From Planctomycetota bacterium (GTDB lineage: Bacteria > Planctomycetota > UBA1135 > UBA2386), in assembly GCA_016716265.1 (NCBI GenBank), contig JADJWQ010000004.1, positions 75,126 to 139,125 of the forward strand: DNA of 64,000 nucleotides. Reading direction: 5' to 3'. The position numbers and the translations under genes were made by a program. The notes under the pieces are model-generated. The model ran no database searches, was not told where the DNA came from, and saw only the letters and a list, made by a program, of their open reading frames with translations. This document shows positions 2,161 through 52,670 of this stretch, piece by piece. Positions within the stretch are counted from its first letter, which is position 1. Each line of letters starts with the position of its first letter.

Positions 2161-2162
2161 CC

Positions 2163-10119: not shown

Positions 10120-12966
10120 ATGCCCCCGCCACGCGTCGACATCCTGCGCCTCAAGGAGCTGTTCGACGCCGCCGCTCCGCTGACGGCAGCGCAGCGCGAG
10201 CGCTACCTCGACGAGCACTGCCCGGGGGACACGCCGCTGCGCCGGAAGCTCGCGCGGATGCTGGCCGACTCCGGGTCGCCGTCGGCCTTCGCCGCGGCGG
10301 GCCCGGCATCGCGCTCCGCCAGCGCGCCGCCCCGCAGGATCGGCCGCTACGTGCTGCAGGCCGAGATCGGCGCGGGAGGCATGGGAGTGGTCCACCGCGC
10401 GCAGCAGCTCGCCCCGGTGTCGCGCGAGGTCGCGATCAAGTGGCTCCGCCCGGGGATGGGCAGCGAGCAGGTGCTGAGGCGCTTCGAACGCGAACGCGAA
10501 GCGCTCGCCGCGATGAACCACGAGAACGTCGTCCGGGTGTTCGACGCCGGGGTGACCGACGACGGACGGCCGTACTTCGTCATGGAGCTCGTCGACGGCG
10601 TGCCCCTGGATCGATACTGCGCCGAACACGAGGCGGGGCTGGTCGAGCGGATCCGGATCTTCCAGCAGGTCTGTGCCGGAGTGCAGCACGCCCACCAGAA
10701 GGGCGTGATCCACCGTGATCTCAAGCCCGCGAACGTGTTGGTCTGCCGCTCCGACGACGGACCGCGGGTCAGGATCATCGACTTCGGCCTCGCCCGAGGG
10801 CACGACCCCGAGCTGGGCGCGGACACGATGATCACGCGGCAGGGCATGCTTCTCGGAACGCCCGAGTACATGTCGCCGGAACAGGTCGCCGGCGATCCCG
10901 GTGCCGTGGATGCGCGCACGGACGTCTACTCGCTCGGCGTGATCCTGTACGAACTCCTCTGCGGCGAGCTACCGCTCTCGTCCGCTGACTTGCGCGACGC
11001 GGGACTGCTCGAGCTGGGGCGGCGGATCAGCGAACGGGAGCCCCGCCGGCCCAGCGCCCGCGTGTGGTCGCAGGTCGCTCGACGGTCGTCGGGCGAATCG
11101 CATCGGAACGGGAGTTCGCGGCAGACGTCGCCGGCCCGGCGCGCGCTCGCCCGCAGGCTGCGCGGCGACCTGGACTGGATCGCGCTCCGGGCCCTGGCGA
11201 AGGACCCCGAGGGGCGCTACGCCTCGGCCGCCGACCTGAGCGCCGACCTCGATCGCCACCTGGCCTGTGAGCCGATCGCGGCCGGGCGTCCCGGCCGGAC
11301 CCACGCCCTGCGCAAGTTCGTGCGTCGCAACCGGCTCGAAGTCGCCGTCGCGGTCACGGTCCTGTCCGCATTCGTCGCCGGTCTGCTCGGTGCGATCGAC
11401 GGCTTGGTCGAAACCGAGGCGGCGCGCAGGCGCGAGAGACTCGCGAGGGTTCGTGAGCAGCAGACGATGGACCCGCTGCGCGTCGCCGACCTGCTCGATC
11501 GGGCGCGCGCACCCTGGCCCTCCGAGCCGACGCTGGAGGCCAATCTGGTGGCGCTCGAGCTGTGGCTCGAGGAAGCCGACCTCCTGCTCGGCCGCGCCGG
11601 GATGCACGAGGCCGCGCTCGCAGGTGTCGCAGGGACCTGGGAGCTCGCTTCGCCGGCCCGCGAGTCCAGCTCCGTCGTCGACCCGGCGTCGGACCCTGGC
11701 GTCGACCATCCGGCGGTCGAGCACCCGGCTGCCGATGACCCGGGCTCCCGGCGCGACGCGAGCGGAGACCGAGGCGCGGCGCGCGCGTCCGGTGCGAAGC
11801 CCGACGCCGCTCCACCCGCCGATCCAGACGGGGGCCCGATCCACGCCGGGCTGCGACCAGGGTCCGAGTCGGCGCGTTTCGCGGCGCTGGCGGACATGCT
11901 CACGTCCCTGCCGGAACTTCGAGCTCGCAGAGACGAGATCGCCGGCCGGCGCGCCGTGCTCGAGCGTCACTGGCCCCTGTGGTCGGTGTTGCGCGACGGC
12001 CTGCGCGGCGTCGAGGGATTCGAGACGGCCGACCTGCGACCTGTCCCGCACCTGATTCCCCTCGGCATCGACTGCGATCGGAACCGCGAGCTCGGCCGCC
12101 AGGTCGAACCGCTCTGGCTGTTCGCGGTCGGAGGAACCGGCGAGATCCCGGAGTGGCTGAACGCCGAGACGGGCGCGCCGGCGCCCTACGGCACGCGCGG
12201 ACGGCTGCGCCTCGTCGAGGACTCCGCAGTGATCCTCGTGCTGCTGCCCGGCGGCGGCTTCTGGCGCGGCACCCAGTGCGACGATCCGACGCTGCCGAAC
12301 TACGACGACATCCCGCGCCCGCACGGCGAACCGCCCGATCGCAGCGGTCCCGTCCTCCACGTGCCCGTGAAGCCGTTCTTCCTGTCGAAGTACGAGCTTA
12401 CCCGGGCCCAGTACGCACGCTTCGTCGCGGCGACCGATCACCGGGCCTGTCCAACACACGGCGCCGCGGACGTCGGTCATCACGCAGCGCGCGGCATCGA
12501 CTGGCGTGACGCTGCGCTGTTCTGCGAATGGGCCGGGCTGGCCTTGCCCAGCGAGACGCGCTGGGAGTATGCGGCGCGGGCGGGCACGACCACGCCGTTC
12601 TGGTCGGGGCGAGACGAGAGCGCACTGGCGCGCGTCGGTTGGTATTGCGGGAATCGTGCGTCCTATCCGCAACCCGTCGGCACGAGCCCGACCGGGATCG
12701 GCGCGCCGAATCCCTGGGGTCTGCACGACGTGCACGGTGGTGTGCGCGAGTGGTGTCAGGACCTGTGTACGAGGCACTGGCGCGAGGGGCCGTGGGACGA
12801 CCGAGCGCGCACCCACGGCGAGAACACCCATCGGATCGCCCGCGGGGGTGGGTTCACGTTGGGCGTCGACGCCGCGCTGGCGGGGCACCGTGCCTACTTC
12901 CCACCCGGGTGTGACTTCCCCGACATGGGGTTCCGTCCGTCCTGCGAGCTGGGCCGAGCACCATGA
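10120..12966 (+). CDS. Ser/Thr protein kinase fused to a C-terminal FGE/SUMF1-like (formylglycine-generating enzyme family) domain
   Basis: ATG at 10120. Kinase motifs [15 protein letters not shown] and [10 protein letters not shown], then one TM segment. The C-terminal domain has [27 protein letters not shown] and GFRP. Confidence 0.9.
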
Positions 12967-15380
12967 TCGAGCGGCAGACGCTCCCGTCGATTGCCGGCTA
13001 CCGCGTTCTGCACAGCGTGGGGTCGGGCGGTTTCGGCACCGTGTATGCGGCCGAACGGCTCGAGCCGGTGCGTCAGCGCGTGGCGCTCAAGGTGCTTCGC
13101 CCGGGTATGGAACGCCCGGAGCTCCTGGCCCGCTTCGAGCGCGAGCGGCAGGCGCTGGCCATGATGAACCACCCGAGCATCGCCGCGATGCTCGACGCCG
13201 GCGTGGACGATCTCGGGCGGCCCTTCGTCGCGATGGAGTTCGTCGACGGCAAGCCGATCACGGAGTTCTGCGACGACCACGCGCTCACCACGCGCCGGCG
13301 GCTCGAGCTGTTCGTCTCGGTGTGTCGCGGCGTGCATCACGCGCATCAGAAGGGCGTCGTCCACCGTGACCTCAAGCCGGCCAACGTCCTCGTCCTCGAG
13401 GCCGATGGCGTCCCACGCCCGAAGATCATCGACTTCGGGATCGCCAGGGCGGTCGAGCCCGACCGCGCCGAGCACTCGTTGCTGACGCTGCCGGGGCGGA
13501 TCCTGGGGACGCCGGACTACATGAGTCCGGAGCAGGCCGATCCCGAGAACGTGGACGTCGATACGCGCTCCGACGTCTACTCGCTCGGCGTGCTGCTGTA
13601 CGAGCTGCTGACCGGAGCGTTGCCGTTCGCGGACGACGAGCTCACGCTCAGGCACCCGGCCGAGGTCCAGCGTATCCTGCGCGAGCGGGATCCTCGGCCG
13701 CCGAGCACGCAGAGCCGCGCGCAGAATCCGGCGGCTGCCGAAGCCCGGGCGAAGAACCGCGGCCTGTCGATCGAGCTGCTCGCGCAACGACTCCGCGGCG
13801 ACCTCGATGCGATCACGATGATGGCGCTCCGCAAGGAACGGGAGCGTCGCTATCCCTCGGCCAGCGCGCTGGCCGACGACGTGGATCGCCACCTGCGCGC
13901 CGAGTTGGTCCTCGCGCGGCCGGCGACCGCGCGGTACCGGTTCGGCCGATTCGTCCGCCGACACCGGGCAGCCGTCGCAGCGGCGTGCGTCGCCGTCACG
14001 GCTTTGATCGGCGCCTTCCTCGTGACGCTGTGGAGTCTCGGTCGCTCCGTCGAGGCGCGAGCGCGGGAGGTCGCCGCACACGCGCTGGAGCGTCGGGCGA
14101 CGGACCCGCTGAGGGTCGAGCAGCTGCTGCATCGGGCGAGGATCCCCTGGCCGCAGACCGTGGACGCCGCTCAGGAGAACGACCGCTGGCAGGCCTGGCT
14201 CGAAGAAGCCGAGGACGTGCTGAGTCGTGTCCCCGAGCTCGCGACCGCGACCTCATCACGCTCGGCCGACCACGTCGACCTGCGAACGCGGAACCTCGGG
14301 CAGATGCGGGCTCGCTTGCCCGAGCTCCGTCGCTGGCGCACGGAGGTCGCCGGGCGCCGTGCGGTTCTCGCGCGTCATGGCCCGCTTTGGGAGACCTGTC
14401 GTGAGAGCCTTCGAGCCTCCCCCGACTTCGCGGGTGTCGACGTCGCGCCGTTGCCGCGGTTGATTCCTCTGGGCATCGACCTCGATCGCGACAGGCGTCT
14501 CGGGCGCCAGGTTCAGCCGCTGTGGGTGTTCGCGGTCGGCGGCACAGGTGCGATCCCGCGCTGGGTCGACGATCGAGGGCGGGACGTCGACTACGGTGGG
14601 CCCGGTCGGGCGGTCATGGCCGTCGACACGGCCGTTCTGCTGGTCCTCCTCCCGGGCGGCTCGGCGTGGCAGGGTACTCAGACCAACGATCCGAACGCGT
14701 TGCATTACGAGGCCCTGCCGGAGGGCGTGTCGCTCGGCACGGAGGCACCGCTCCACCGGGTCACGTTGTCGCCCTTCTTCCTCGCCAAGTATGAGGTGAC
14801 CAACGAACAGTACCTGCGCTTCGTCGCGGCGACCGGGGCGGCGTTGCCCGACTACGTCGACCACGAGCGGATCGGCGGCGCGGGGAAGCCGGTCGTCGGC
14901 GTCGATCGGGACGAGGCGATGGCGTTCTGTCGTTGGCTCGGCCTGCGGCTGCCGAGCGAGTCGGAGTGGGAATATGCCTGCCGCGCCGGAACGACGACGA
15001 GATTCTGGTTCGGCGACGAACCCGAGGAGCTGATGCGGGCGGGGTGGATCGGACGCCGGTCGGAACAGGGCGGCTCTCCGATGCCGGTAATGCTGGGCGG
15101 TCGCGGGGTGTCCCGAGCGAATCCCTGGGGTCTCCACCACATGCATGGCAACGTGGAGGAGATCTGTCGTGACGACTTCCATGGGTCCTACGTCGGCGCG
15201 CCGGCCGACGGCAGTCCGCGCGTCGACGGTGAGGGGCTCGGACCCGTGCGCCGCGGCGGGTCGTGGCACGACGGCTGGGAGTTCTGCCGGTCGGCAACTC
15301 GCACGAGCAACCGGCCGCATGGGCCCTACGGTCGACGGTTCGACCGCCTCGGCTTCCGGGTCGCGCGGAACCCGTACTGA
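12963..15380 (+). CDS. Ser/Thr protein kinase fused to a C-terminal FGE/SUMF1-like domain (tandem paralog)
   Basis: Start overlaps the upstream stop (ATGA at 12963-12966). Motifs [16 protein letters not shown] and [10 protein letters not shown], then a TM segment, then [34 protein letters not shown] and LGFRVARNP. Confidence 0.9.
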
Positions 15381-15482
15381 CGCCCGGCGGCTTCGGCCTA
15401 CGATTGGCCGGCGTGGTCTCGGCACGCGCGGTGGAATCCCGTAACTCCAGACGCCTTCGGGCGCTCCACATCTGGAGGGAAC

Positions 15483-16064
15483 GTGACGCAACGCGACTCA
15501 TCGCAACGGATCTCTGAACTCATCGAGTCGGCGCAGGCGGGCGGCGAGCAGGCGGCAGAGGAGCTGTTCCCCCTCCTGTACGGAGAGCTTCGTGACCTCG
15601 CACGACAGATGATCGCCCGCGAACGACCGGGCCAGACCCTGCAGCCCACCGCGCTCGTCCACGAGGCCTACCTGCGGATCGTCGGCGGGCGCGACCGCGG
15701 CTGGGACGGCCGCCCCCACCTGTTCGCGGCGGTCGCCGAGGCCATGCGCCGGATCCTGATCAACCGTGCCCGGCGCAAGGGCCGGATCAAGCACGGCGGC
15801 GATCACGAGCGCGTCGAACTGGACCTGACCGACCTGCCCATCGAGGCGCCGAGCGAGGACATCCTGCAGGTCGAAGAGGCGCTCGCGTCACTCGAGGCGG
15901 CCTATCCCCAGGCGCGGGCGATCGTCAATCTGCGCTACTTCGCGGGGTTCACGAACCAGGAAACCGCGGATGCGCTGGGGATGTCCGATGCGACGGTTCG
16001 GCGCGAGTGGCGCTTCATCCACGCCTGGCTGCGAGACGCCCTGGGCCCCGTCGGGCCGGAGTGA
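15483..16064 (+). CDS. ECF-type RNA polymerase sigma factor (TIGR02999 / Sig-70_X6-like)
   Basis: GTG start. Motifs 'LIESAQAGGEQAAEELFPLLYGELRDLARQ', 'LQPTALVHEAYLRI' and region 4 'LRYFAGFTNQETADALGMSDATVRREWRFIHAWL' are typical of the kinase-associated ECF group. Confidence 0.9.
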   Translation: MTQRDSSQRISELIESAQAGGEQAAEELFPLLYGELRDLARQMIARERPGQTLQPTALVHEAYLRIVGGRDRGWDGRPHLFAAVAEAMRRILINRARRKGRIKHGGDHERVELDLTDLPIEAPSEDILQVEEALASLEAAYPQARAIVNLRYFAGFTNQETADALGMSDATVRREWRFIHAWLRDALGPVGPE

Positions 16065-16292
16065 ACCCCGACGTCGCCAGGCGACGCCGAGGCGCGGTCC
16101 GCCGGAGGCCGTCCGGAGTTCCCGCGCGGCTCAGTTCCCGACGGCGTCCTGTCCGGAAAGAGCGCCGACGTCATTCTGGTGTTCCGGCGACGCTCGCGAC
16201 CGCGTCTCCGCAATACGACTCGCGAGGGTCAGGCCGAGCAACGGCCGCTTCGGGCACACCGGTCGCGCGATGTACCGGTCGGTGACTGGCTT

Positions 16293-17388
16293 TCCTTCTC
16301 CCGACGCGACCGTGATCAGGCCGCGCGCTCGTCGTGGCGGAGCAGGCCACCGAGGCGTTCGCGCGCATCGACGTCCCCGGTTCCCGCGGCGGGTATCCCG
16401 GCGATGAGCTCGTTGCCGATGCCTTGGTGCGGACGCTCGGTGGTAGTGCGTGACGAACTCCCGAACGGCGCGATCGAGGTGGCCAGTGCCGAAGAGGATG
16501 AGCCGATCGAGGCACTCGCGCTTGATCGAGAGCGCGAAGCGCTCGGCGAACGCGTTCATGTTCGGCGCCTGGTAAGAGGTCGTCACCGGACACACGCCGG
16601 CGTCGGTCAGGATGCGCTTGAAGCGGCCGCTGAACTTCGTGTCGCGATCGAGGACCAGGAACCGCTTCGCGCGGAGGAATCCGTCGACGTGGTCGGTGAG
16701 GTTGCGCGCGACCTGCGCCATGAACGCGGAGTCAGGGTTCGTCGTGATGCCGGCGATCTCGACGGCTCGCGTCGCGTGGTCGATCACGAACAGCACGTAG
16801 AGGGTGACGAGCCCCCGAGCCGTCCACACCTCAGCCGTGAAGAAGTCGATGGCGGCGATGACGTCGGCGTGGGAGCGGAGGAAAGCGCGCCAGCTGGTCG
16901 GCCGATCAGGGCTCGGCTTGGTGCCGTGCTCCTTCAGCGTCTTGGCGACCGTCGACTTGGCGACGCAGTGTCCGAGCTTCTTCAGCTCGCCCTGGATGCG
17001 GCAGTAGCCCCAGGTCGAGTTCTCGGCGGCCATGCGGACGATCAGTGTCCGGATCTCCTTCATGATCCCGGGCCGACCGACGCGGCGAGACGGGTAGGTC
17101 CACTTCGCGGCAATCAGTCGGCGGTGCCAGCGCAGGATGGTGTCGGGCGTGGCGATGGTCGCGACGCGGGCGAGGAGTCGCCGGCTGCCGAGCTGTTCTC
17201 GGAGAACGCGGCGCTCCTCGATCAGGTACGCGACGGTCCGCGCCTGCTCGTGGTGGACCCAGCCGCCAACGGCGGTCAGGATGACACGGAGGGGCTGGAA
17301 TCGGAGCACGGCGCGCATGATCGCGGCGGTCGAGCGCAAGTTCGTAAGTCCACGGAGCGCAGCGCGTTCGATTCTCCGGACAGCACGG
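16293..17388 (-). mobile_element. rve-type IS, copy A (boundaries approximate)
   Basis: Ends inferred from where similarity to the other copies stops. The other copies are 25484..25929, 18144..18277 and 1988..2160. About 100 bp beyond 17388 repeats an internal segment (GGAGGGGCTGGA..GCACGG..GATCG), suggesting a further partial copy. Confidence 0.6.
16316..17318 (-). pseudogene. rve-domain transposase of copy A, frameshifted near the C-terminus
   Basis: ATG at 17318 (MRAVLRFQPL...). Core: [35 protein letters not shown] ... FLVLDRDTKF ... APNMNAFAERF. After 'THYH' (about 16437) the expected 'ERPHQGIGNELI...ERLGGLLRHDERAA*' lies in another frame and ends at 16316. Relative to copy C it also lacks a ~21-codon segment ([14 protein letters not shown]...). 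Confidence 0.75.
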
Positions 17389-17511
17389 GTGGAGGGGCTG
17401 GAGTCCGGGCACGGGGCGCCGATCGTACCGGTGAAGCGCAGGCCCTCACGTGAACCGCCCGCAGCGCGCTCGAGTCTTCGCGCCTCGTGCGCACACCCCG
17501 GCAATGCTGCG

Positions 17512-17784
17512 TCAGATCGCCCGTCGAGACGTGCCGGGAGCCGCCGTGCCGCGGAGCAGCCCTGCGACGCTCAGATCCTCGTCGACGTCCGGCCAGTGAA
17601 TGCCGTGACCGTCGCCCAGCAGCCGCCAGTTGAGGCGTTGTTCGTTCGTAGCGTGGAGTAGGCGGGGGAACCAAGCCAACGGAACGATCACGCGACGCCC
17701 ATCGGCTAGCTCGACTGAGAGTTCATCCTCGGTAACCACGACGTCTGTCGCGCGCGGGTCGACGCTAGGATCCGAAGTAGTCAT
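17512..17784 (-). CDS. DUF2442-family protein
   Basis: 'VELADGRRVIVPLAWFPRLLHATNEQRLNWRLLGDGHGIHWPDVDEDLSVAGLL' matches the DUF2442 pattern as I recall it. Confidence 0.75.
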   Translation of the reverse strand: MTTSDPSVDPRATDVVVTEDELSVELADGRRVIVPLAWFPRLLHATNEQRLNWRLLGDGHGIHWPDVDEDLSVAGLLRGTAAPGTSRRAI

Positions 17785-22205: not shown

Positions 22206-23729
22206 ATGATCCCGCGTGATCTCGAGGCCGAGATCCTCCGACTCCACCACGTCGAGAAGTGGAAGGTCGGCACGATCGCCGCGCAGCTCGGCGTGCATCA
22301 CGACGTCGTCCGCCGCGTCCTGCAGCAGGACGGCATGCCGCAGTCACGACCACAGCGGCCGAGTCGGATCGACCCGTACCTGCCCTTCATCCTGGACACC
22401 CTGCATCGCTACCCGCGCTTGCCGGCGAGCCGTCTTTACGTGATGTGCAGGGAGCGCGGCTACCGCGGCAACCCGGACCACTTCCGGCACATGATCGCGC
22501 GGCATCGTCCGGAGCGCCCCAAGGAGGCGTTTCTGCGCATGACGGCGCTGCCCGGCCAGCATCGGGCAGGTCGACTGGGGTCACTTCGGCAAGCTCCAGA
22601 TCGGGCGCGCCGTGCGCGCCCTGATGGCCTTCGTGATGGTGCTGGCCTACTCGCGCCGGATCTTCCTGCGCTTCTACCTCGACCAGCGCACCAGCAGTTT
22701 CCTGCGCGGCCACGTCGCGGCCTTCGATGCATGGAACGGCGTGCCGAGGACCCTGCTCTACGACAACCTCAAAAGCGCCGTCCTCGAGCGTCGTGGTGAT
22801 GCGATCCGCTTCAATCCGCTGCTGGTCGACTTCGCGCGCCACCACCGCTACGAGATCCGGCCGGTCGCGGTTGCGCGCGGCAACGAGAAGGGCCGCGTCG
22901 AACGCGCGATCCGCTACATCCGCACGTCCTTCTGGCCGGCGCGCTCGTGGCGCGATCTCGACGACCTCAACGACCAGGCCACCGACTGGTGCGACAGCCA
23001 CGCGATGGACCGTGCCTGGCCCGGCGACCGGACCCGGACCGTGGCCGATGTCTTCGCCGAGGAGCAGCCGCGTCTGCTCTCGCTACCGGAGGCTGCGTAC
23101 CCGACCGAAGAGCGCAACGAGGTGCGCGTCGGCAAGACCCCGCACGTCCGCTTCGACGGCAACGACTACTCGGTGCCGCACGAGCTCGCCCAGCGGTCCG
23201 TCGAGCTGCGGGCCTCGCTCGAGCAGGTGCGGATCCTGCACGAGGGCCAGTCGTCGCCACGCATCCGCGGTCGTTCGACCGCGGTCAGGTGATCGAGGAT
23301 CTCGCGCACGTGCACGGTCTGCGCAAGGCCAAGGGCGAGCTGCGTCGGCATCGTGCGCAGGACCGGCTGGCGCAGGCGGCACCGAGCAGCCAGCAGCTGT
23401 TCGTCCGGATCGCCGAGCAGGGCTTCAACCTCGGGCGGTCGACGCAGCTGATCGTGCAGCTGCTCGACCGACACGGCGCCGTCCGTCTCGAGCAGGCGAT
23501 CCGCGAAGCTCTCGCTGCCGGGCACCCACAGCCACCACGCCCTGCGCCACATCCTCGAGCGGATGCGCCACGACGAGGGCGACCACCCGCGGTGCCGGCG
23601 AAGTTGCCGGAGGATCCGCGCGTGCGCGACCTCGCGGTACGGCCACCGGAGCTCGGCAGCTACGACGCGCTGCTCGACGGACCGCAGGACCAGACCTCGA
23701 AGGAGGCCGACGATGTCACGACGGACTGA
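22206..23729 (+). pseudogene. istA: IS21-family transposase IstA with multiple frameshifts
   Basis: N-terminal HTH '[33 protein letters not shown]', then the core '[31 protein letters not shown]...[13 protein letters not shown]...[17 protein letters not shown]'. The sequence is spread over frames 0/1/0/1/0, with shifts near 22560, 23255, 23520 and 23590. Confidence 0.8.
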
Positions 23730-24490
23730 CGAGGCACTGAAGGAGCAGGCCCGGCGACTGGGCCTGTGGGGCCTGCTGGCGAACTGGGAGACGCTGGGGC
23801 GCGAGTCGTGGGTGTGCGACTACCTTGACACCGAGGACGACGTTTGGCAGCAGCGCAGCCTCGAAGCGGCGCGTCCGCAATGCGAAGCTCGGTCGCTTCA
23901 AGACGATGGCCGACTTCGACTGGCAGTGGCCCGAGAAGATCGACCGCGATCACGTCGACGACGTCCTGGGCCTCGGCTTCATGGACGAGAACGCCAACGT
24001 CGTCATCGCCGGACCCAACGGAGTCGGCAAGACGACGATCGCACAGAACCTCGGCTACCAGGCGCTGATGAAGGGCCACACCGTGCTGCGGGTGACCGCG
24101 AGCGAGATGCTCAACGACCTCGCCGCGCAGGAGTCGTCGGTCGCGCTCGCGCGGCGGCTCCGGCGCTACTGCAACCCGGCTCTGCTGATCGTCGACGAGA
24201 TCGGCTACCTGAGCTACGACAGCCGGTGCGGCGACCTGCTCTTCGAGGTCGTCAGCCGTCGCCACGAGCTTCGGTCGACGGTGCTGACGACCAACAAGGC
24301 CTTCTCGGAGTGGACCGAGGTCTTCTCGAACGCCTCGTGCGTGACCGCGCTGATCGACCGCCTGGTCCACCGCGCCGAGATCGTCAAGATCGAGGGACGG
24401 TCCTACCGGGAGAAGGAGGCCCACGAACGCAACGCGCGCAGGGCGGCAGAACGGGGACGGAAGTCGCGAGCCGCCAAGGCGCGGTCGTGA
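23713..24490 (+). pseudogene. istB: IS21-family ATP-binding helper IstB, frameshifted
   Basis: AGGAGG then ATG at 23713 (MSRRTDEALKEQARRLGLWGLL...). A frame change near 23865 leads into 'NAKLGRFKTMADFDWQWP...VIAGPNGVGKTTIA...LLIVDEIGYL...TTNKAFSEW' (Walker A and B motifs). Confidence 0.8.
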
Positions 24491-27938: not shown

Positions 27939-28970
27939 TCAGGCCACAGGTGCGTAGTGGCGCAGCAGGCCGCCGAGCCGCTCGGTCTCGCGGACGTCGC
28001 CCCCGCCGGCGTGGCCGTCTTCCGGTCGTCGCGGCATGAGCGCGTTGCCCACTCCTCGCGATGGCCGCTCGCGGTTGTGGTGCACTGCGTACTCCCGCAG
28101 CGCCCGGCGAAGCATGCCTCGTTCGAACAGCACTGGCCGGTCGAGACACTCTCTCTGCACCGAGCGCCCGGTGACCGCGTTCATATCTGCAGCCTGGTTG
28201 GAGGTCGCCACCGAACACATGCCGACGTCGGTCAGGATGCGCTCGAACTGGCGGCTGAACTTCGTGTCAGGATCGAAGATCAGAAGCCGCCCGGCGCGGA
28301 GGAAGCCGTCGCCATGGTCGGTCAGGTTGCGCGCAAACTGCGCCATGAAGGCGCCGTCAGTGTCGGTGGTGACGCCAGCGATCTCGGGGGCGCGCATCGC
28401 GAACGATCACGAAGAGCACGTAGTGCGTGAACAGCCAGCGCGCGGTCCGGACCTCGGCGGTGAGGAGGTCGGCGTCGGCGATGGCGTCGGCGTGCCACCG
28501 AGAGAGGGTACGCCAGGATGTCGACCGATCCGGTCACGACCTGTTCCCGCGCTCCTTCAGCGTCCTGGCGATCGTCGACCTGGCGACGCGGCGGCCGAGC
28601 TTGCTCACCGCGCCCTGGATGCGGCAATGGCACGGGCCGAGCCGTCGGCGGCCATGCGGACGATGAGCGCTCGAATCTCCTTCATGTTCCCTGGCCGGCC
28701 GACCACCGCGGCGACCAGGTCCACTTCGCCGCGATCGGCCGTCGGTGCCAGCGCAGGATGGTGTCGCGAGTGACGATCGTTGCCGCGCGAGAGTGGAATC
28801 GGCATCCCGGCGTGGAGCCCCTCGCTACGAAGCGTCGGCGCTGGCCGTCGGTCAGGTGTCGCCGCCGTATTGCGGGCTGTGCTGCGATGGCGCGGACCAC
28901 GTCGGCCAGTCAGGTACCGATCGGGGCGTGCGCACGGTAGGACCCAGCCGCTGCCCGTGGTCAGGAGGAG
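27939..28970 (-). pseudogene. rve-type IS, copy D, heavily decayed (many frameshifts)
   Basis: Pieces in several frames: '...TIVTRDTILRWHRRPIAAKW', 'RPGNMKEIRALIVRMAAD', 'FMAQFARNLTDHGDGFLRAGRLLIFDPDTKFS', 'HNRERPSRGVGNALM...ERLGGLLRHYAPVA*'. Confidence 0.6.
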
Positions 28971-31241: not shown

Positions 31242-31644
31242 AACGGTGGCGGCGAGCCAGGCAACCTGGTGTCGAGACACCCCGTGAACGGAGCCCTGGG
31301 CCTGCGCCTACTCCTTCGGCCGTGCTCGCCGATTCGAACCAACGTGGGATGGCGCCGCCGACAGCTGACACGAGCTGGCCGGTCGCGCGGACCGCTGTGC
31401 GGTCGGCGGCAGTTCCTGCGCCTCGGCGCGACGAGACACCGGCTCCGAGGTTGCAATGACGGCGCGCTCCGTCGAGTCGCGTGAGCGACGATGTTGCCGC
31501 CGCGGTGGTTCGGCTTGCCGTCGATGAGTCCGTTGCGGAGGCCCCGGTACCGACTTCCGCGTGGTGAGTTTCCGCAGGTTCGAGCCCGCGAACAGGACGC
31601 CGTCTCGTACGCCCGGTGACCACGGTCGGGCTTCGCTCGACGGG

Positions 31645-32427
31645 TCAGCGACGCTGTGCGATGAAGTCGATGCCGAGCGTGCCGAACAGGGCGGCGCTGC
31701 TGTGCTGCCGCGCACCCGCGAAGACGTCGCCACGCCACGTGACGCGGAAGCCCTCGAATCCGGCGGCCACGACCGTGACCTCGAGCTCTGCCTCTTGCAG
31801 AGCCCCGGCGATTCAACCCGTCCAGAGGTCGATGCGGTGCAACGCCTGCCGCGGGACCTCACGCCGCACGATGATGTCGGCGAGCTGGAGCCGCCCGCCC
31901 GGACGAAGAACGCGCCGCATCTCGGCGAGCGCGCGAGCCTTGTCCGGCAACAGGTTGAAAACGCCGTTGCTGATCACCACGTCGGCCCAGCCGTCGGGGA
32001 CCGGCAACTCCTCGGCCAGGCCCTCGTGCACCTCGAGATTCGCGAATGGCGCCTCGGCGGCGCTGACCCGCGCCTTCTCGACCATGGCCGGTGTCATGTC
32101 GACGCCGATCACCCTGCCTGTCGCGCCGACCATCTTCGCGGCGATCCACGCGTCGGCGCCCGCGCCGCAGCCGATGTCGACGACGTGCTCACCGGCCCGC
32201 AGCGGACCGGCGCGGAACGGGTTGCCCGTGCCGGCGAACGACTCGACCGTGCGCTCTGGCACGTCGCCGAGCCAGTCCTCGTCGTAGCCGAGCAGAGCGA
32301 ACAGCAGCCTCCCGGTGTGGAAATGGAAGCCACGGCCGGGCTCGCGCGCGACCGCGTCGTAGTCGGCCCGGATGGCGTGCCGCAGCTCGGCTCCGTCGAT
32401 CCACGTGTCCGCTCGTTCGGTGTCCAT
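31645..32427 (-). CDS. ArsM-like SAM-dependent methyltransferase with in-frame UGA (candidate Sec at codon 205, nt 31813-31815)
   Basis: ATG at 32427. SAM motif 'VVDIGCGAGADA', then 'VVISNGVFNLLPDKARALAEMRRVLRPGGRL', then 'DLWTG-TGA-IAGALQEAELEVTVVAAGFEGFRVTW...FGTLGIDFIAQRR*'. The TGA aligns with the Cys of the ArsM 'LW.GC(L/I)AGAL' motif. The downstream 56 codons remain open and family-like. Confidence 0.7.
31783..31805 (-). promoter_or_regulatory. SECIS-like stem-loop 3' of the UGA in the ArsM-like gene
   Basis: Minus strand reads GGGCUCUGC-AAGAG-GCAGAGCUC: a 9-bp stem with one G-U pair and a 5-nt loop. The stem starts 8 nt after the UGA and the loop lies at +17..+21. Confidence 0.5.
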
Positions 32428-32574
32428 GCCCTGAAGGCGCACGATGCGGTCCGCGGGGGACGCGAATTCAGCGCGTCTGCGCGCACCCGACAATCGTGGC
32501 CGGGTGTCGAAGCAGACTGCGCCTGTGGCGGCGCGGCTCCGCTCGGGAGCCGCATCATACGAGAGGTACGAACG

Positions 32575-33504
32575 ATGACCACCTACTCCTTCGCTGGCTG
32601 CCTGCAGAACTCCCAGCGCATCAACTGGCGCCTCGACGAGGTGCTGGGTGATCGCGATTTCGATCCCCGCAAGCGCTGGCTGCCGCAGGCCCTGTCCGGT
32701 GCCGACGCGGTCCGGTGCCTCGACGATGACGAGAAGCGCAAGCTCACGCACGTCGAGATGGCCGCCTACGCGCACCTCTTCGGATACGTCGAGGAGTTCA
32801 TCGCGCCCAAGATCGCGGAGCTGGCATGCGACCACCGGGAGAGCGACCGCACCGCCTTCCACGCGCTGACGAGCTTCGCTGCCGAGGAGGTCAAGCACAT
32901 GACCCTGTTCCGTCTCCTGCGTGACCGCATCGACGCGAAGATGGGCTTCGGTCTACAGCTCGTCGGCGATGCGGAAGGCACTGCCACCTACGTGCTCGGC
33001 AAGAGCCCCGGCGCCGTGCTCCTGCTCACCGCGTGTATCGAGTGGTTCACGCAGCGCCACTACCGCGAGTGCTTCGTCGAGGATGCGACGCTCGACCCCT
33101 TCGTCCGCCACGTCTTCAAGATGCACTGGCTGGAGGAGTCGCAGCACGCCAGGATGGACCACCTCGAGACGCTGCGCGTGTTCACTGCCAGCGACGATGC
33201 CGAGCGCGACCGCGCGGTCGACGACCTGATCGATCTCGTCGCCGCGGTCGACGGTCTGCTGCAGATGCAGGCGGGCTTCGACGTCGACAACCTGTCCCGC
33301 TACCTCGGTCGCGAGTTCGACCAGCGCGCACGCGAGGAGATCCTGGCCAGCGTGCTGCGCGCCAAGCGTCACACGTTCCTGGCGTCCGGCGTAACGCACC
33401 CGCGTTTCCAGGAGCTGTTCCTCGAGGTCACCACTCCGGCCCAGCAGGAGCGGGTCGGCGCCGCTCTCGGCGCGCTGCTCGCGGGTGACGCCGCGACCGT
33501 CTGA
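32575..33504 (+). CDS. ferritin-like diiron oxygenase (AurF / p-aminobenzoate N-oxygenase-like family)
   Basis: ATG at 32575 (MTTYSFAGCLQNSQRINW...). Two E..H diiron motifs, 'FAAEEVKHMTLF' and 'HWLEESQHARMDH', with family-like spacing. The 647-aa ORF in the track is a spurious 5' extension. Confidence 0.8.
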   Translation: MTTYSFAGCLQNSQRINWRLDEVLGDRDFDPRKRWLPQALSGADAVRCLDDDEKRKLTHVEMAAYAHLFGYVEEFIAPKIAELACDHRESDRTAFHALTSFAAEEVKHMTLFRLLRDRIDAKMGFGLQLVGDAEGTATYVLGKSPGAVLLLTACIEWFTQRHYRECFVEDATLDPFVRHVFKMHWLEESQHARMDHLETLRVFTASDDAERDRAVDDLIDLVAAVDGLLQMQAGFDVDNLSRYLGREFDQRAREEILASVLRAKRHTFLASGVTHPRFQELFLEVTTPAQQERVGAALGALLAGDAATV

Positions 33505-33576: not shown

Positions 33577-34668
33577 ATGACCTTCCGCCCGATCCTGCTC
33601 GCGCTGGCCCTGACCGCCGCCGTTACGCCGGCGCAAGGCGAGGCCGACCGCGATCCGCGCTCGGCCCGCGCCGAGTTCGAGCACTTGCTGCTCGAGCACG
33701 TGCGCGAGCAGCGCGAGGTGGCGCGGGCCGCGCCCGAGCTCGACCGGCTCGCGACCCTCGACCGCGCTGCGGCCCGTCTCGCGCCACGGTTCCTGGCGTT
33801 CGCCGAGGCCTGCCCGGACGCAGCGGTGCAGCTCGAGGCGCTGCTGTGGCTCGCGCAGAACGCGCCGACCGGCTCCGCGGACGGCGCGCGCGCGGCCACG
33901 CTCGTCGGCGAGCGGTTCGCGTCGGCACCGGCCGCGCTGCGCGTGCTGCCCTCCCTCGGCCGCTTCTGCCCACCCCTGACGGAGGACGAGGCGTCGGGGA
34001 TCGCCGAGCGTCTGTGCGTCGAGCAGGTCGGTGATGAAGCCAGGTCCCGCTGCCATTTCTACGCCGGTGACCTGCTCCTCCAGCGACGCCCGGGCCAATC
34101 AGCCCCCGAGGCTGCCCGCCAGCACCTCGAGCGGAGTCTCGCATTGACGCAGGAGCCTCGCCGCCGAGCGGCCGCGGCGCGATCGCTCCACGCCGCCACG
34201 GTGATCGACGTCGGTGCGCGTGTTCCGGCCGTCCACGGCGTGGACTTCGACGGCGCGGCGTTCGATCTCTCGCAGCGGCGTGGCAAGGTCGTCCTGCTCT
34301 CGTTCTGGGCCGACTGGTGAGGCGCGTGCAAGGCACACGCCCCCGCCGAGCGGTCGCTCGCGGAACGACTCGACAACCGCCCGTTCGAATTCGTCGCGAT
34401 CAGCGTCGACCAGGATCTCGCGGTCGCACGCCGCACCGCTGCGGCGTTGGGCCTGCCCGGCACGCAGCTGTGGGCGGGTCCGAAGGGCACGGCGGGCCCG
34501 TTGCCCGAGGCGCTGATGGTGCCGAGCTGGCCGTTCTTCCTGCTCGTCGATGCCGAGGGCGTCGTGCGCTGGCGCAGCCACCGGTTCGACGGCCTGCCCG
34601 AGACAGCGCAGCGCTGGGTCGAGGCCGCGGAGCGCGCCGCCGCCGGGGCACCGGCGATCGGCAGGTGA
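33577..34668 (+). CDS. secreted TlpA/ResA-like thioredoxin-fold protein with in-frame UGA in the CxxC motif (candidate Sec at codon 248, nt 34318-34320)
   Basis: ATG at 33577 gives MTFRPILLALALTAAVTPAQG, a signal peptide. '...GKVVLLSFWADW-TGA-GACKAHAPAE...FEFVAISVDQD...LMVPSWPFFLLVDAEGVVRW' matches the canonical FWA.WC..C redox motif and Trx-fold continuation in the same frame. The track splits it into 33514..34320 and 34447..34668. Confidence 0.7.
34343..34363 (+). promoter_or_regulatory. SECIS-like stem-loop 3' of the UGA in the TlpA-like gene
   Basis: CCG(C)CGAGC-GGUC-GCUCGCGG: an 8-bp stem with one bulged C and an apical GGUC tetraloop at +32..+35 from the UGA. As I recall, the E. coli fdhF SECIS also has a GGUC apical loop. 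Confidence 0.5.
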
Positions 34669-49990: not shown

Positions 49991-50017
49991 CTTCGTTCGA
50001 GGTCCTGCGCCGACGCC

Positions 50018-50554
50018 GTGGCCGCGCTCCGCGATACCTGCTGGTGCCTCGCGTTCGCCGCGCTCGCGGTGACCCCGTGGTGGCTGCGGCCTGCCGACCC
50101 GGCTCTGCATGCGCGGCCCGAGGTCGCCGCGCGGCCGGCGCCGGTGTTGCGCGAGCTGACCGACCTGCGGGTGCCGGCGCGCGACGGCCTGCCCGCGTGG
50201 CGCGCGGCCACCGCGCAGCCCCGGCCGTGGGAGGGTCTCGGTGGCTTCGCGCTCGGCGGGACCCTCGACGCGCTCGAGCTGCGCGACGTGACCGTATCGC
50301 TCGGGACCGACGGCGTGGTGCTCGCTGCGGAGCGCGGCGTCGCGACCCGCGTCGCGCTCGAGCTCGCCGGCGTGCGCGGCCGCGGTCCCGCGGGCGAGCG
50401 CCTGCGTGCCGGCGACTGCGTGCTGCGTGGCGGAATCGCGAGCTTCACCGGCGCGGTCGCCTGGCTCGCGCCGGGCGATGGGGTGCCGGTCGACGTGCAG
50501 CTCGATCAGACGCTCCCGCTCGCGGAGCTCGCGGCGCGGCTGGCCAAGCCATGA
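50018..50554 (+). CDS. hypothetical exported or membrane-anchored protein
   Basis: GTG start, hydrophobic N-terminus (CWCLAFAALAVTPWW). Its stop overlaps the next start (ATGA at 50551-50554). Confidence 0.45.
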   Translation: MAALRDTCWCLAFAALAVTPWWLRPADPALHARPEVAARPAPVLRELTDLRVPARDGLPAWRAATAQPRPWEGLGGFALGGTLDALELRDVTVSLGTDGVVLAAERGVATRVALELAGVRGRGPAGERLRAGDCVLRGGIASFTGAVAWLAPGDGVPVDVQLDQTLPLAELAARLAKP

Positions 50555-51744
50555 GCGGGCGCTGGCTGCGCGACCGGCTCGCACCGGCGCTCGCGGGGCT
50601 CGCGGCCGCGGCGGCGCTGCTCGCGCTCGCCGGTGGCGGGGATCCACTCGCGGCGCTGCGCGCGCTCGACCACGGCGACCTGCTGCTCGGCGATGCGCGG
50701 CTGTTCTTCCTGCCCCAGGGCCGCGCGGTGCTCGCGAGCGCACCGGGCGCGCACCTGCACGTCGCGCAGAGCTACCTGACGCCCGGCGCCGCGCTGGCGT
50801 TCGCGCCGCTCGCGGCGCTGCCGGACGGCGGGATCGCCGTCCTGTGGGTGGCGGTCGGGCTCGCGGTGGTCGCGCTCGCGTCGCTGGCCGCCCGCTTCGC
50901 CGGTTGCCGGGAGCCGCGGTCGCGCGCGGCGATCGCGTTCGCCGTCGGCTGCTCGGCGCCGGTGCTGCACGGCCTCAAGTGGGCGCCGACCAGCACCTGG
51001 GCGCTGCTGGCGCTCGCCGGCGCGGCGCTCGCGCTCGAGGGCGGTCGCGCGCGGCGGGCGGCGCTGCTGGTCGGGGTCGCGATCGTCGCGAAGCCCTGGG
51101 CGGTGCTCGCGATACCGGCGCTGCCCGGGTCCCGCGCCCGGTTGACCGCGCTCGCGACGGCCGCGGCGCTCGGCCTCGCGCTGCCCGCGCTCGTGCTCGG
51201 CCCGACGGCGACCTGGAGCTACTGCGCCGACCTCGTCGCCGACGTCGGAGCGCGGCGCGCGAACTTCGCCGTCGATCCCAACTCGCAGGCGCTCGGCCAC
51301 GTGCTGGCGCGCTACCTGCGCGTGCCCGCCGCGGACCGGCTGGCGTGGTCCGGTGCCCTCGCGCTGCCGGCCGCGCTGCTCGCGATCGGCTGGCTCGCGG
51401 TCCTCGCGCGCCGGCCAGTCGCGCGCCCGCGGGCGGCGACCCTGTGGCCACTGCTCGCGATACCCGCGCTCGTGCCGACCGCCTGGCCGCACGACCTGCA
51501 GGTCGTCGCGCTGCTGCTGCCGGCGGCGTTCGTCGCGCGGCGTGGCCGGGCGGCCCGGAGCGCGCTCGCGGTGGCGTGGGCGGCACAGTCGGTGGGCGCC
51601 GTCTGGCTGGGTGGCCCGCGCTGGTTCGGTGCGCTCGGCCTGCCGCTGGCCGCGGTGGCGATCGTGGCGGCGGTGCGCGTCGCGGCCGCGCGCCGCGATC
51701 ATCCCGCCGCCGGCTCGGCGACGTGCACGAGCGCGTCGCCCTGA
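50551..51744 (+). CDS. polytopic membrane protein, tentatively GT-C / DUF2029 (GT87)-like glycosyltransferase
   Basis: ATG at 50551. About 10 or more TM helices with an Ala/Leu-rich composition and an overall architecture like the DUF2029 family. The assignment is tentative. Confidence 0.6.
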   Translation: MSGRWLRDRLAPALAGLAAAAALLALAGGGDPLAALRALDHGDLLLGDARLFFLPQGRAVLASAPGAHLHVAQSYLTPGAALAFAPLAALPDGGIAVLWVAVGLAVVALASLAARFAGCREPRSRAAIAFAVGCSAPVLHGLKWAPTSTWALLALAGAALALEGGRARRAALLVGVAIVAKPWAVLAIPALPGSRARLTALATAAALGLALPALVLGPTATWSYCADLVADVGARRANFAVDPNSQALGHVLARYLRVPAADRLAWSGALALPAALLAIGWLAVLARRPVARPRAATLWPLLAIPALVPTAWPHDLQVVALLLPAAFVARRGRAARSALAVAWAAQSVGAVWLGGPRWFGALGLPLAAVAIVAAVRVAAARRDHPAAGSATCTSASP

Positions 51745-52670
51745 TGCACGGTCGGGTCGAGCGACAGGCCGATCACGCGGCCGGTCGGGACCGTCACGCG
51801 GATCGGCACCGCGTCGCGCCCGAGCGCGTCCGCGACCTCGCCGATCACCTGGCCGCGCTCGACCCGCGCGCCGAGCGCACACGACAGTCGGGCCAGCCCA
51901 CCGCGCGGCGAGCGCACCCACGCGCTGTGCCGCGCGAACGTCGTCGCGCGCGGGCTGCGGCCGCCGCCGCGCCGCAGCATGCCGAGGTGCGCGAGCACCT
52001 GCAGGCAGCCGCGCACGCCGGCGCGGATCGCGGCCGCGTCGAAGCGCTGCGCCTCGCCGCCCTCGTAGACGAGCACGCGCGTGCCGTGCCGTGCGGCCGC
52101 CGCGCGCAGCGAGCCGTCGGGCTGCCGACCGTGCAGCGTGACCGGCGCGCCGAACGCCTGCGCGCAGGCCCGCGTCGTCGGGTCGTCGAGATCGGCGCGC
52201 ACGTGTGGGAGGTTCGTGCGGTTCCGCGTCCCGGTGTGCAGGTCGATGCCGACGACGCAGCGGGACACGACGTGTTCGACGAACCGCCGCGCGAGCCGCG
52301 AGGCGAGCGCACCGTGCGCCGAGCCCGGGAACGAGCGATTGAGATCGCGGCCGTCGGGCAGGTAGCGCGACCGCTGCAGGAAGCCGAACACGTTGAGGAG
52401 CGGTGCGGCGAGCAGCGTGCCGGCGAGCCGCTCCGGCGTCACCGCGGCGAGCACGCGGCGGACGATGTCGACTCCGTTGAGCTCGTCGCCGTGCACGCAG
52501 GCGCTGACGAACACCGCCGGCCCGGCCCGGCGGCCATGCACGACGCGCAGTGGGATCGTCAATGGCGTGCCGCTCGGCAGCCGGGCGGCCGCGAGCTCGA
52601 CGTCGGCGGTGCTGCCCGGTGCGACGACCGCGTCGGCGATCTCGAACGGCTGGCGGGTGCGCTCAGCCAC
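51699..52670 (-). CDS. succinylglutamate desuccinylase/aspartoacylase (AstE/AspA) family zinc hydrolase
   Basis: '[14 protein letters not shown]' and 'VGIDLHTG' motifs. Its start overlaps the rimK stop. Confidence 0.85.

Follow-up and report, generated by a model that had tools for sequence, protein, structure and literature searches.

The window (the whole stretch of 64,000 nucleotides analyzed here) carries on its minus strand a gene for an ArsM-like methyltransferase that is almost certainly a real selenoprotein gene, in which an in-frame UGA encodes selenocysteine (Sec). The locus is very likely to be a single gene whose product is a 260-residue, SAM-dependent methyltransferase with the ArsM fold and whose codon 205, the UGA, is translated as Sec (Table 1). 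A sequence-only reading had proposed a candidate selenoprotein here because the UGA coincides with the conserved cysteine of an LWxG-Cys-IAGA motif, and the proposal is now strongly supported by the corresponding column in homologs, by related DNA, by an RNA hairpin, and by the peptide encoded downstream. Since selenocysteine-containing (UxxG) arsenite methyltransferases are already in the catalogues, the novelty is low: the Sec-containing ArsM-like family has been catalogued since 2007, and the window gene is a well-supported new member rather than a discovery.

Table 1. Features assigned at and beside the methyltransferase locus
Feature	Positions in window	Strand	Basis
ArsM-like methyltransferase, read-through coding sequence	31645..32427	minus	translation, GC signature before and after the UGA, homologs, ArsM structures
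UGA in frame at residue 205, proposed to encode selenocysteine	31813..31815	minus	Cys/TGA column in relatives; alignment with CmArsM Cys224
True terminal stop codon, TGA	31645..31647	minus	homologs end within a few residues; coding signature lost beyond
SECIS-like hairpin, 9 bp (core of 7 bp, 31785..31803; loop AAGAG, 31792..31796)	31783..31805	minus	folding energy, covariation, RNAalifold
Second conserved hairpin, GUCAC-GGUC-GUGGC, 5 bp, ~34 nt past the UGA	31766..31779	minus	covariation, RNAalifold
AurF-like di-iron protein, 309 aa, divergently transcribed neighbor	32572..33504	plus	Pfam PF11583, E 2e-12
Second selenoprotein-type gene, secreted TlpA/ResA-like thioredoxin-fold protein	33577..34668	plus	translation, Redoxin/AhpC-TSA domain, relative L091

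The open reading frame that precedes the UGA (32427..31816) starts with an ATG at 32427 and ends in RIDLWTG. Beyond the UGA the same frame reads IAGALQEAELEVTVVAAGFEGFRVTWRGDVFAGARQHSSAALFGTLGIDFIAQRR, and the full coding sequence thus consists of 204 codons, the UGA, 55 further codons, and a terminal TGA, with the residues LWTG-U-IAGALQEAELEVTVVAAGFEGFR spanning the predicted Sec205. This layout agrees in coordinates and translation with the sequence-only reading, whose AGTGNP and SNGVFNL motifs are likewise found in the product. Openness of the 55 codons carries little weight by itself, because such a stretch is not rare at a genome GC content of 70%. The codon-position GC content (0.75/0.51/0.85), however, is unchanged across the downstream part and collapses in the window past the second stop. 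Searched alone, the downstream peptide gave an E value of 3e-13 to a Cys-form homolog, and it is 67% identical to Cys forms; the resemblance to family C termini on which the sequence-only reading had made its case depend is therefore present. In a confident structure model of a Cys homolog that is 64% identical to the window protein (the homolog used for both the model and the fold search), the tail that follows the cysteine forms a helix and the last two long β-strands of the core. Thus, a 204-residue product would miss part of the core sheet. The public protein collection nonetheless holds the gene solely as a 204-residue product (P0001), the truncation that had been foreseen for automated gene callers.

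Evidence that the UGA encodes an amino acid came from relatives. Homologs covering 94–100% of the product identify it as an ArsM-like class I SAM-dependent methyltransferase. Among 120 protein homologs, 112 have cysteine at the UGA column; the C-terminal 55 residues align throughout, and the C termini fall within a few residues of the window's terminal TGA. None of the homologs stops naturally after LWTG, a possibility that had been raised against the selenoprotein proposal; they run on through the tail. In related DNA the column is TGA in 80 of 86 occurrences and TGC in the other six, with many bacterial phyla represented. These 86 occurrences were taken from loci collected by a search without bias toward TGA, and the relatives, which were drawn from a scan of species-representative genomes, are at most 69% identical to the window protein. 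Five independent metagenomic or MAG orthologs likewise have one TGA each, at this column. A tryptophan stands there in four database proteins (P0034, P0038, P0039, and P0052), and in all three whose DNA could be read the codon is a TGA that had been read as Trp.

The sequence-only reading had also noted a strong hairpin 8 nt past the UGA, and this too was borne out. The hairpin, GGGCUCUGC-AAGAG-GCAGAGCUC, starts at the eighth base past the UGA and has a folding energy of −14.8 kcal/mol. Across 79 distinct sequences, 99.8% of the cells of its core helix are paired. Two core pairs have undergone compensatory substitution (G-C to U-A, A-U, C-G, and G-U), and the conserved pairing was reproduced in 0 of 500 shuffles; RNAalifold predicted the hairpin independently. 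Of 81 UGA forms, 80 keep the whole helix, as against one of seven Cys forms. Synonymous sites in the stem are frozen (an Ala codon is GCU in 81/81 and a Glu codon GAG in 80/81), whereas the Glu codon of the loop and Ala codons outside the stem vary freely. The hairpin is thus conserved beyond what the protein needs and is lost in most Cys forms. By analogy with the established bacterial mechanism, the hairpin would be a SECIS element: it would bring SelB-GTP-Sec-tRNA(Sec) to a ribosome paused at the UGA, so that Sec would be inserted instead of translation being terminated.

How well does the hairpin fit the published description of bacterial SECIS (bSECIS) elements? The criteria comprise a loop of 3–9 nt, a stem of 4–16 bp, a distance of 16–37 nt from UGA to loop, and a minimum free energy of −7.5 kcal/mol or lower (PMC13188914), together with a G in loop position 1 or 2. 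The window hairpin fits in geometry and energy (a stem of 9 bp and a 5-nt loop that lies 16 nt from the UGA, at −14.8 kcal/mol) but not in the loop rule, from which AAGAG departs. Three of the four published criteria therefore hold in the window and all four in 79 of 81 relatives; the two exceptions to the loop rule, which 79 of the 81 family members obey, are the window and one other locus (L019). Some predicted bSECIS elements do depart from the model (PMC13188914). The family loop is UGGAA/G, from which the window deviates through a rare CAA codon. As in the consensus bSECIS model, the hairpin lies within the coding region directly past the UGA. The family loop U-G-G-A-A fits the consensus N1-G-[G/U]-N-N2 exactly; the window loop differs, yet it retains the near-invariant G22 and A23. 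Because the window loop breaks the published G rule, Sec insertion at its UGA could be inefficient.

The ArsM-like family also differs from the consensus model, which has no second hairpin, in having a second, covarying one. This hairpin is 85% paired across the family, and all five of its pairs are formed in the window. Every one of the five pairs shows double changes, and a pair between two third codon positions, both synonymous, accounts for 30. The second hairpin may contribute to recoding as an accessory component. The alignment would also allow an outer helix that encloses both hairpins, but it shows no covariation, and we do not claim it. A search of the window against Rfam gave no match.

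The gene has known counterparts. 'Arsenite methyltransferase, UxxG, 1 Sec' is an entry among the prokaryotic selenoprotein families in Table 1 of a 2026 review (PMC13188914), which gives Fomenko et al. 2007 (Science 315:387) as the first report, and a Sec-containing arsenite S-adenosylmethyltransferase family (PRK11873/NF008823) also appears in the GOS selenoproteome (PMC2398784). Judged by the published description of the UxxG family (representative WP_011987699.1), the window protein shares with the UxxG family an ArsM-type domain, a single Sec in U-x-x-G (U-I-A-G in the window), the placement of that Sec at the substrate-binding or catalytic Cys position, abundant Cys homologs, and a hairpin directly past the UGA. 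It differs in scoring below the cut-off for NF008823 and in having neither the other ArsM cysteines nor the C-terminal domain. The review also cites Haft and Tolstoy 2025 for selenoproteins in which an ArsM-type methyltransferase is fused to another domain: NF041537 (ArsM/AhpD), NF041536 (ArsM/DUF2284), and NF047649 (methyltransferase/UXPK-star). These models gave the best NCBIfam matches to residues 11–229 (235, 203, and 212 bits, respectively), far below their cut-offs of 510, 575, and 460. The window protein has in common with these fusions the methyltransferase domain with its UxxG Sec and matches the N-terminal domain alone (profile positions 9–227); it lacks an AhpD, DUF2284, or UXPK-star part and a second Sec, and the sequence past the terminal TGA is non-coding. 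A second Sec of the UXPK-star type beyond that TGA was considered and excluded, there being no coding signal or motif.

What the enzyme methylates is a separate question. The closest alternative to our reading accepts the Sec but holds that the protein is a true arsenite methyltransferase that works as ArsM does, with Sec replacing Cys224; we regard this as rather unlikely. In its favor, ArsM structures were the best match both in a PDB sequence search (5evj, E 4e-29) and in a Foldseek search with the modeled Cys homolog (4fr0, TM score 0.73, rmsd 2.1 Å, 33% identity); the fold is that of CmArsM, CrArsM, and human AS3MT (PDB 4fr0, 5evj, and 8xt7), and the UGA aligns with the As(III)-binding Cys224 of CmArsM. 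Moreover, the literature places UxxG Sec forms under 'arsenite methyltransferase', JGI gives many of the homologs that label, and the commonest neighbor in relatives carries an ArsR-family HTH domain.

Against it, the alignment to solved ArsM structures, which upheld the ArsM motifs named in the sequence-only reading, retains only one of the four ArsM cysteines. Cys72 of CmArsM is replaced by threonine and Cys174 by glycine, both invariant in 120 of 120 homologs; the clade has invariant AGTGNP and SNGV motifs, Cys44 has no equivalent, and residues 1–86 of the window protein contain no cysteine. A survey of ArsM proteins admitted only those with three or more of the four conserved cysteines (CmArsM 44, 72, 174, and 224; PMC5552862), of which the window protein has the 224 equivalent alone, as Sec. 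Its score with the NCBIfam ArsM model NF008823 was 202.8 bits against a cut-off of 263. Structurally characterized ArsM proteins are in addition ~100 residues longer and have a C-terminal domain that the window protein lacks.

Genomic context also separates the clade, which was not seen in ars operons, from ArsM. Scanned against Pfam, the 146 nearest flanking ORFs of ~78 loci included no ars genes. Instead, the neighbors in relatives included genes for rhodanese, ArsR-type HTH-rhodanese, TusA, DsrE, OsmC, and metallo-β-lactamase proteins, and some relatives are adjacent or fused to rhodanese, TusA, DsrE, or metallo-β-lactamase genes. Such a sulfur-transfer context was present at ~21 of the ~78 loci and is absent from the window itself. 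Given that one of four ArsM cysteines is kept and that the context features sulfur genes and never ars genes, arsenite is probably not the substrate of the clade.

Under our preferred reading, Sec205 would, from homology, take the place of the substrate-binding Cys224 beside the methyl group of SAM, where, as a soft ligand or nucleophile, it would hold the methyl acceptor. On a more speculative level, because the other ArsM cysteines are absent and rhodanese, TusA, DsrE, and metallo-β-lactamase genes form the context, arsenite chelated as in ArsM might be a less likely acceptor than a species of sulfur, selenium, or tellurium or some other soft substrate that a sulfur-carrier protein delivers. 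The sequence-only reading had likewise envisaged a single-Sec enzyme with a chemistry or substrate probably other than that of arsenite methylation; this is plausible and has partial support from the missing cysteines and the non-ars context. We suggest, tentatively and with somewhat less than even confidence, that the clade of ~260-residue proteins with a single Sec or Cys could be a distinct, very widespread family that methylates S, Se, or Te species, or persulfide or perselenide bound to a carrier, with rhodanese-, TusA-, or DsrE-type partners as suppliers. In that case Sec would be the active-site residue favored in phyla of soil and sediment such as Gemmatimonadota, Chloroflexota, and Acidobacteriota, and the family would have an unusual two-hairpin recoding element.

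The methyltransferase gene is not the only one in the window that appears to use UGA for Sec. The TlpA/ResA-like gene, 1.9 kb away, has an in-frame UGA (34318..34320) in the motif W-U-G-A-C, followed by hairpins at 34321..34341 and 34343..34363, and the Redoxin/AhpC-TSA domain of its product extends across the UGA. In a relative (L091) the TGA, both hairpins, and the UxxC motif are all retained, and a Cys homolog (P0124) reads WCLPC; the match to the model for ResA-like WAxxUGC selenoproteins was weak. In the whole 64 kb, only two in-frame TGAs are clean and flanked on either side by coding signal, both at catalytic Cys positions. On the strength of this second UGA gene, the source genome very probably decodes Sec. 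The decoding genes themselves would lie elsewhere: none of selA, selB, selC (tRNA-Sec), and selD was found in the window, nor did ARAGORN find any tRNA gene there. ARAGORN likewise found no tRNA-Sec in 60 related loci, and tblastn with E. coli queries (from NC_000913.3) found no match to SelA, SelB, or SelD in the window plus 1.1 Mb of related loci.

This lack of Sec machinery in the 64-kb window is one of the observations that would favor another reading, in which the gene is a pseudogene or the methyltransferase is naturally cut short at 204 residues; the TGA would then be a real stop created by nonsense mutation or by a sequencing error in a TGC codon, and the downstream frame would be decaying. 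Gene callers and RefSeq do end such genes at the TGA, and the window loop has left the family consensus through its rare codon. We nevertheless judge truncation to be very improbable. Independent nonsense mutations or errors are incompatible with 80 related occurrences, spread over many phyla, in which the TGA falls at one and the same column; moreover, the 55 downstream codons keep their GC signature and their identity to Cys forms and encode two core β-strands, and synonymous sites of the hairpin are under selection. That UGA is a sense codon for Trp or Gly (codes 4 or 25) is scarcely credible despite the public calls of Trp in the four orthologs mentioned above, since TGA also terminates the methyltransferase gene and its neighbors, both in-frame TGAs of the window stand at catalytic Cys positions, the conserved Trp in LW is encoded by TGG, the homolog column is Cys rather than Trp or Gly, and a GC content of 70% is unlike that of known UGA-reassigned lineages.

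These results call for the methyltransferase gene to be annotated as one 260-residue selenoprotein instead of a 204-residue fragment, and for the same correction at the TlpA/ResA-like gene; together, the two UGA genes indicate that the organism uses selenocysteine. The closest relatives come from ~80 species-level genomes of many phyla, almost all with UGA. At least one is named in RefSeq as a truncated 'methyltransferase domain-containing protein', and some metagenome pipelines translate the UGA as Trp. Thus, although publications on selenoproteins include the family, its stand-alone clade is systematically mis-annotated. To call the clade 'arsenite methyltransferase' is probably to claim more than is known. 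With three of four ArsM cysteines missing and sulfur-transfer genes nearby, estimates from environmental surveys of arsenic methylation may be inflated if its members are counted as arsM.

Finally, we note some features of the surroundings. All-against-all clustering of flanking ORFs was set aside, the clusters being mostly shadow or antisense ORFs of GC-rich genomes and several of them Arg/Pro/Gly-rich artifacts. Within the window, a plus-strand ORF (31528..33504) proved to be more than an antisense shadow: when GC content was plotted by codon phase, its 3′ part emerged as a real gene, the AurF-like one, of which the TGA at 33502..33504 is the ordinary stop. The other neighbors are small putative lipoproteins that belong to no Pfam family. 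The AurF-like neighbor recurs: a protein 74% identical to it is encoded at the same divergent position beside the closest Sec ortholog (L001).

The sequence-only reading had placed on the minus strand an ArsM-like methyltransferase gene interrupted by a TGA with an open frame beyond, and translation confirmed it: past the UGA, 55 sense codons follow in frame (IAGALQEAEL...GIDFIAQRR) before a second TGA at 31647..31645. At the 70% GC of the window, 55 codons without a stop are not remarkable, and we therefore sought better evidence in codon-position GC, in tail homology and in the database product. GC at the three codon positions was 0.75/0.49/0.90 upstream of the UGA and 0.75/0.51/0.85 downstream, and dropped to 0.65/0.75/0.67 beyond the second stop. 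The 55-residue tail alone matched a Cys-containing homolog with an E value of 3e-13 (67% identity across 36 residues). As anticipated for automated callers, the public protein collection holds the methyltransferase only as a product truncated at 204 residues (P0001). The region has a single match to a sigma-70-like promoter (TGGTCA-16-TATGAT; 32554-32581, minus strand), which lies about 125 nt 5' of the methyltransferase start and inside the divergently transcribed AurF-like gene, at its 5' end.

Features of the methyltransferase locus and of the second UGA-containing gene (A1, alignment of 75 nt from the UGA)
Feature	Position	Strand	Remarks
Methyltransferase ORF	ATG 32427 to TGA 31815..31813	minus	ends ...RIDLWTG
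Helix 1 hairpin, GGGCUCUGC-AAGAG-GCAGAGCUC	first base is the eighth after the UGA	minus	MFE -14.8 kcal/mol
Helix 1 core	A1 columns 13-19 with 25-31; window 31803..31785	minus	covariation and RNAalifold
Helix 2	A1 columns 37-41 with 46-50; window 31779..31766	minus	~34 nt past the UGA; GCN-ACG-GUC-GUN-GC
AurF-like di-iron protein (PF11583)	32572-33504	+	divergent from methyltransferase
Second selenoprotein-type gene	33577-34668; UGA 34318-34320	+	signal peptide; TlpA/ResA-like thioredoxin fold
Hairpins of second gene	34321-34341; 34343-34363	+	34343-34363 has a GGUC loop starting 31 nt past the UGA

Pfam assigned class I SAM-methyltransferase domains to the protein, and the top NCBIfam models were the ArsM-type selenoprotein models NF041537, NF047649 and NF041536 together with the arsenite methyltransferase subfamily NF008823, each scoring under its cut-off. 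The best sequence matches among solved structures were the arsenite methyltransferases CrArsM (E 4e-29) and CmArsM (E 1e-24). In alignments with both, the UGA falls at the Cys of GEC-L(A/G)GAL, the As(III)-binding Cys224 of CmArsM, and the motifs FWGCGNP (Cys72) and SNCVINL (Cys174) stand opposite FAGTGNP and SNGVFNL. The ArsM motifs given in the sequence-only reading were thus right, and the further proposals that the UGA sits exactly at a conserved ArsM Cys and that two other cysteines are lost held among homologs: in the best 120 of 8000 protein-search hits the UGA column is Cys in 112, and the other two positions are Thr and Gly in all 120. These homologs span 94-100% of the read-through protein, extending through the entire tail.

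Two of the 120 entries, the window's own product and P0041, end at LWTG, and four (P0034, P0038, P0039 and P0052) have Trp at the UGA column. The DNA of P0041 and of the three "Trp" entries other than P0052 (loci L002, L003 and L004) contains in each case a single in-frame TGA, exactly at the UGA column, and the homologous tail beyond it is intact. The Trp residues are thus artefacts of gene calling; the metagenome contigs were evidently called with a code in which UGA is Trp, a practice that hides selenoproteins as seeming Cys-to-Trp variants. In a confident structure model of a Cys homolog 64% identical to the window protein (P0008; pLDDT 90.9, pTM 0.90), the Cys is followed by a helix and then by the two last long β-strands of the sheet, so that translation stopping at the UGA would leave the core fold incomplete. 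Foldseek paired this model with CmArsM (TM 0.73, rmsd 2.1 Å); the ArsM C-terminal domain is absent from the family of the window protein.

A DNA-level search with one genome per species recovered 80 loci at 60-69% identity from Chloroflexota, Gemmatimonadota, Acidobacteriota, Nitrospinota, KSB1, Rubrobacteraceae, Eisenbacteria and beta- and deltaproteobacteria. Counted over every locus fetched, the UGA column holds TGA in 80 occurrences and TGC in six, and the search was not biased towards TGA, since one of its patterns was a Cys-containing peptide and none contained a stop. Such a preponderance of TGA over many phyla cannot have arisen by independent nonsense mutations or by sequencing errors. 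In the species-representative genomes sampled, the selenocysteine (Sec) form is more frequent than the Cys form among the closest relatives. In two loci the Sec form is present twice, as separate copies 4-10 kb apart (L012, TGA at 10598 and 14563; L040, TGA at 1666 and 11666).

The strong hairpin reported to begin 8 nt after the UGA is present as described. In A1, an RNA alignment of 81 UGA forms, 99.8% of the cells of this helix (helix 1) are paired across 79 distinct sequences, in which pair 18/26 is G-C in 74, U-A in three, A-U in one and C-G in one; pair 19/25 shows one G-U double change. The observed helix values were matched by none of 500 shuffles, sliding the partner by 1-3 columns lowered pairing from 94% to 23-60%, and RNAalifold recovered helix 1 unaided. 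Codon usage follows the stem: its Ala codon is GCU in 81 of 81 forms, with all four synonyms in use for Ala off the stem, and its Glu codon is GAG in 80 of 81, as against GAA in 48 and GAG in 28 for the loop Glu. In several compensatory variants the pair survives a change of amino acid, from Ala to Glu, Gly or Val. All pairs of the helix are kept in 80 of 81 UGA forms, compared with one of seven Cys-codon forms. The TGC form of L005/L006 retains the complete hairpin (7/7 and 5/5 pairs), which would be consistent with a recent switch from Sec to Cys.

The family consensus loop, U-G-G-A-A, agrees with the pattern N1-G-[G/U]-N-N2 of the published model of the bacterial Sec insertion sequence (SECIS; PMC13188914); it starts 16 nt past the UGA, and stem and energy lie within the limits of that model. 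[quoted passage not shown] There the loop (31792-31796, minus strand) is AAGAG, against a consensus of UGGAA/G, a consequence of CAA as the Gln codon, which is rarely chosen at 70% GC; the near-invariant G22 and A23 are kept and G21 is lost, a possible sign of less efficient recoding. Helix 2, unlike helix 1, has no counterpart in the standard bacterial SECIS model. It is 85% paired in A1, and each of its five pairs shows double changes; the pair formed by two synonymous third positions accounts for 30. An outer helix around both hairpins was compatible with the alignment but showed no covariation, and we do not claim it.

The 64-kb window contains no tRNA gene and no match to E. coli SelA, SelB or SelD. 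When the whole window was scanned for TGAs lying in frame with coding signal before and after, only two clean cases emerged, the methyltransferase and a plus-strand gene 1.9 kb away. The latter reads ...GKVVLLSFWADW-TGA-GACKAH..., that is, W-U-G-A-C (FWADW-U-GAC) at the CxxC position of the thioredoxin fold; a Redoxin/AhpC-TSA domain extends across the TGA, and the gene product weakly matches TlpA as well as the known selenoprotein model for ResA-like WAxxUGC proteins. A relative with 65% identity (L091) retains the TGA, the UxxC motif and both downstream hairpins, and the hairpin other than that with the GGUC loop has a U-A pair where the window has a C-A mismatch. A Cys homolog (P0124) reads WCLPC, and the database holds the gene only as separate fragments (P0123; in relatives, P0121 and P0122). 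Two unrelated genes, each with a TGA precisely at a catalytic Cys and a conserved hairpin, are strong indirect evidence that the organism has the Sec trait. We consider the methyltransferase very probably a selenoprotein, the main reservations being the atypical AAGAG loop and the absence of Sec machinery genes from the 64 kb.

Apart from Sec205 the protein has one Cys, in the GxGxG motif and not conserved, and no other core Cys is conserved among the 81 Sec forms. A C-terminal tail of about 20 residues with one conserved Cys (...EEEWxAALAALSCEVP...), which may act as a resolving or relay Cys, occurs in 38 of the 81 (for example L002, L008, L021 and L073) and is absent from the window protein. 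In canonical ArsM (CmArsM), As(III) is bound between Cys174 and Cys224, and Cys72 and Cys44 are needed for the first methylation. A published survey (PMC5552862) counted as ArsM only proteins with three or more of these four Cys, and the clade of the window protein has one. We therefore think that the clade would be ArsM-like in using a soft active-site chalcogen ligand to present the acceptor to SAM, and do not class it among the arsenite methyltransferases, a doubtful label for it. A sulfur, selenium or tellurium species handed over by a carrier protein seems a more likely, though hypothetical, acceptor.

Cys forms are often fused to TusA and adjoin TusA, DsrE, ArsR-HTH-rhodanese, metallo-β-lactamase and MFS genes; one Sec form (L071, about 2000-3990) is fused to rhodanese and metallo-β-lactamase domains. 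The top families among 146 ORFs flanking Sec forms were rhodanese (21, of which 15 are ArsR-type HTH-rhodanese), OsmC (six) and metallo-β-lactamase (five), with no ars genes among the 146. The AurF-like protein has a counterpart of 74% identity in the closest ortholog locus (L001), where synteny and the divergent arrangement are kept. On the 3' side of the methyltransferase lie small putative lipoproteins without a Pfam family.

The motif U-I-A-G agrees with the catalogued UxxG, and the gene is thus a further member of the known Sec "arsenite methyltransferase" family, which a specialist would recognise at once. The GOS selenoproteome (PMC2398784) lists eight Sec sequences and 245 Cys homologs, and the family also appears in a 2022 review. 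A 2026 review (PMC13188914), which cites Fomenko et al. 2007 for the family, counts it in Table 1 as "experimentally verified" and gives NF008823 as its domain, UxxG as its motif and one as its number of Sec; the same source gives fusion forms sharing the UxxG Sec as described in 2025. The stand-alone clade escapes annotation rules: in L028 (NZ_QKAP01000093.1, a Malonomonas rubra MAG) the RefSeq ortholog, WP_303722039.1, is a 208-residue "methyltransferase domain-containing protein" ending at the UGA, and its full-length form is absent from the protein collection. That escape, the Sec-form majority among the closest relatives and the doubtful arsenite label seem to us slightly under-appreciated.

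Elsewhere in the window, inspection by eye found transposase/integrase-like ORFs (integrase-core-like, IS21 IstA/IstB-like and fragments) at 2118-3491, 16131-17570, 22543-24490 and 27939-28406, and gene density is low over ~17.5-29 kb, suggesting a region rich in mobile elements. Two tandem large proteins at 9922-16064 (plus strand) look Ser/Thr kinase-like with a C-terminal sulfatase-modifying-factor-like domain and are followed by an ECF sigma factor of subfamily TIGR02999 (196 bits); a similar kinase adjoins the redoxin gene in L091. Composition is extreme at 50001-52000 and 60001-64000, where GC is 0.78-0.80 and AT skew reaches -0.29.
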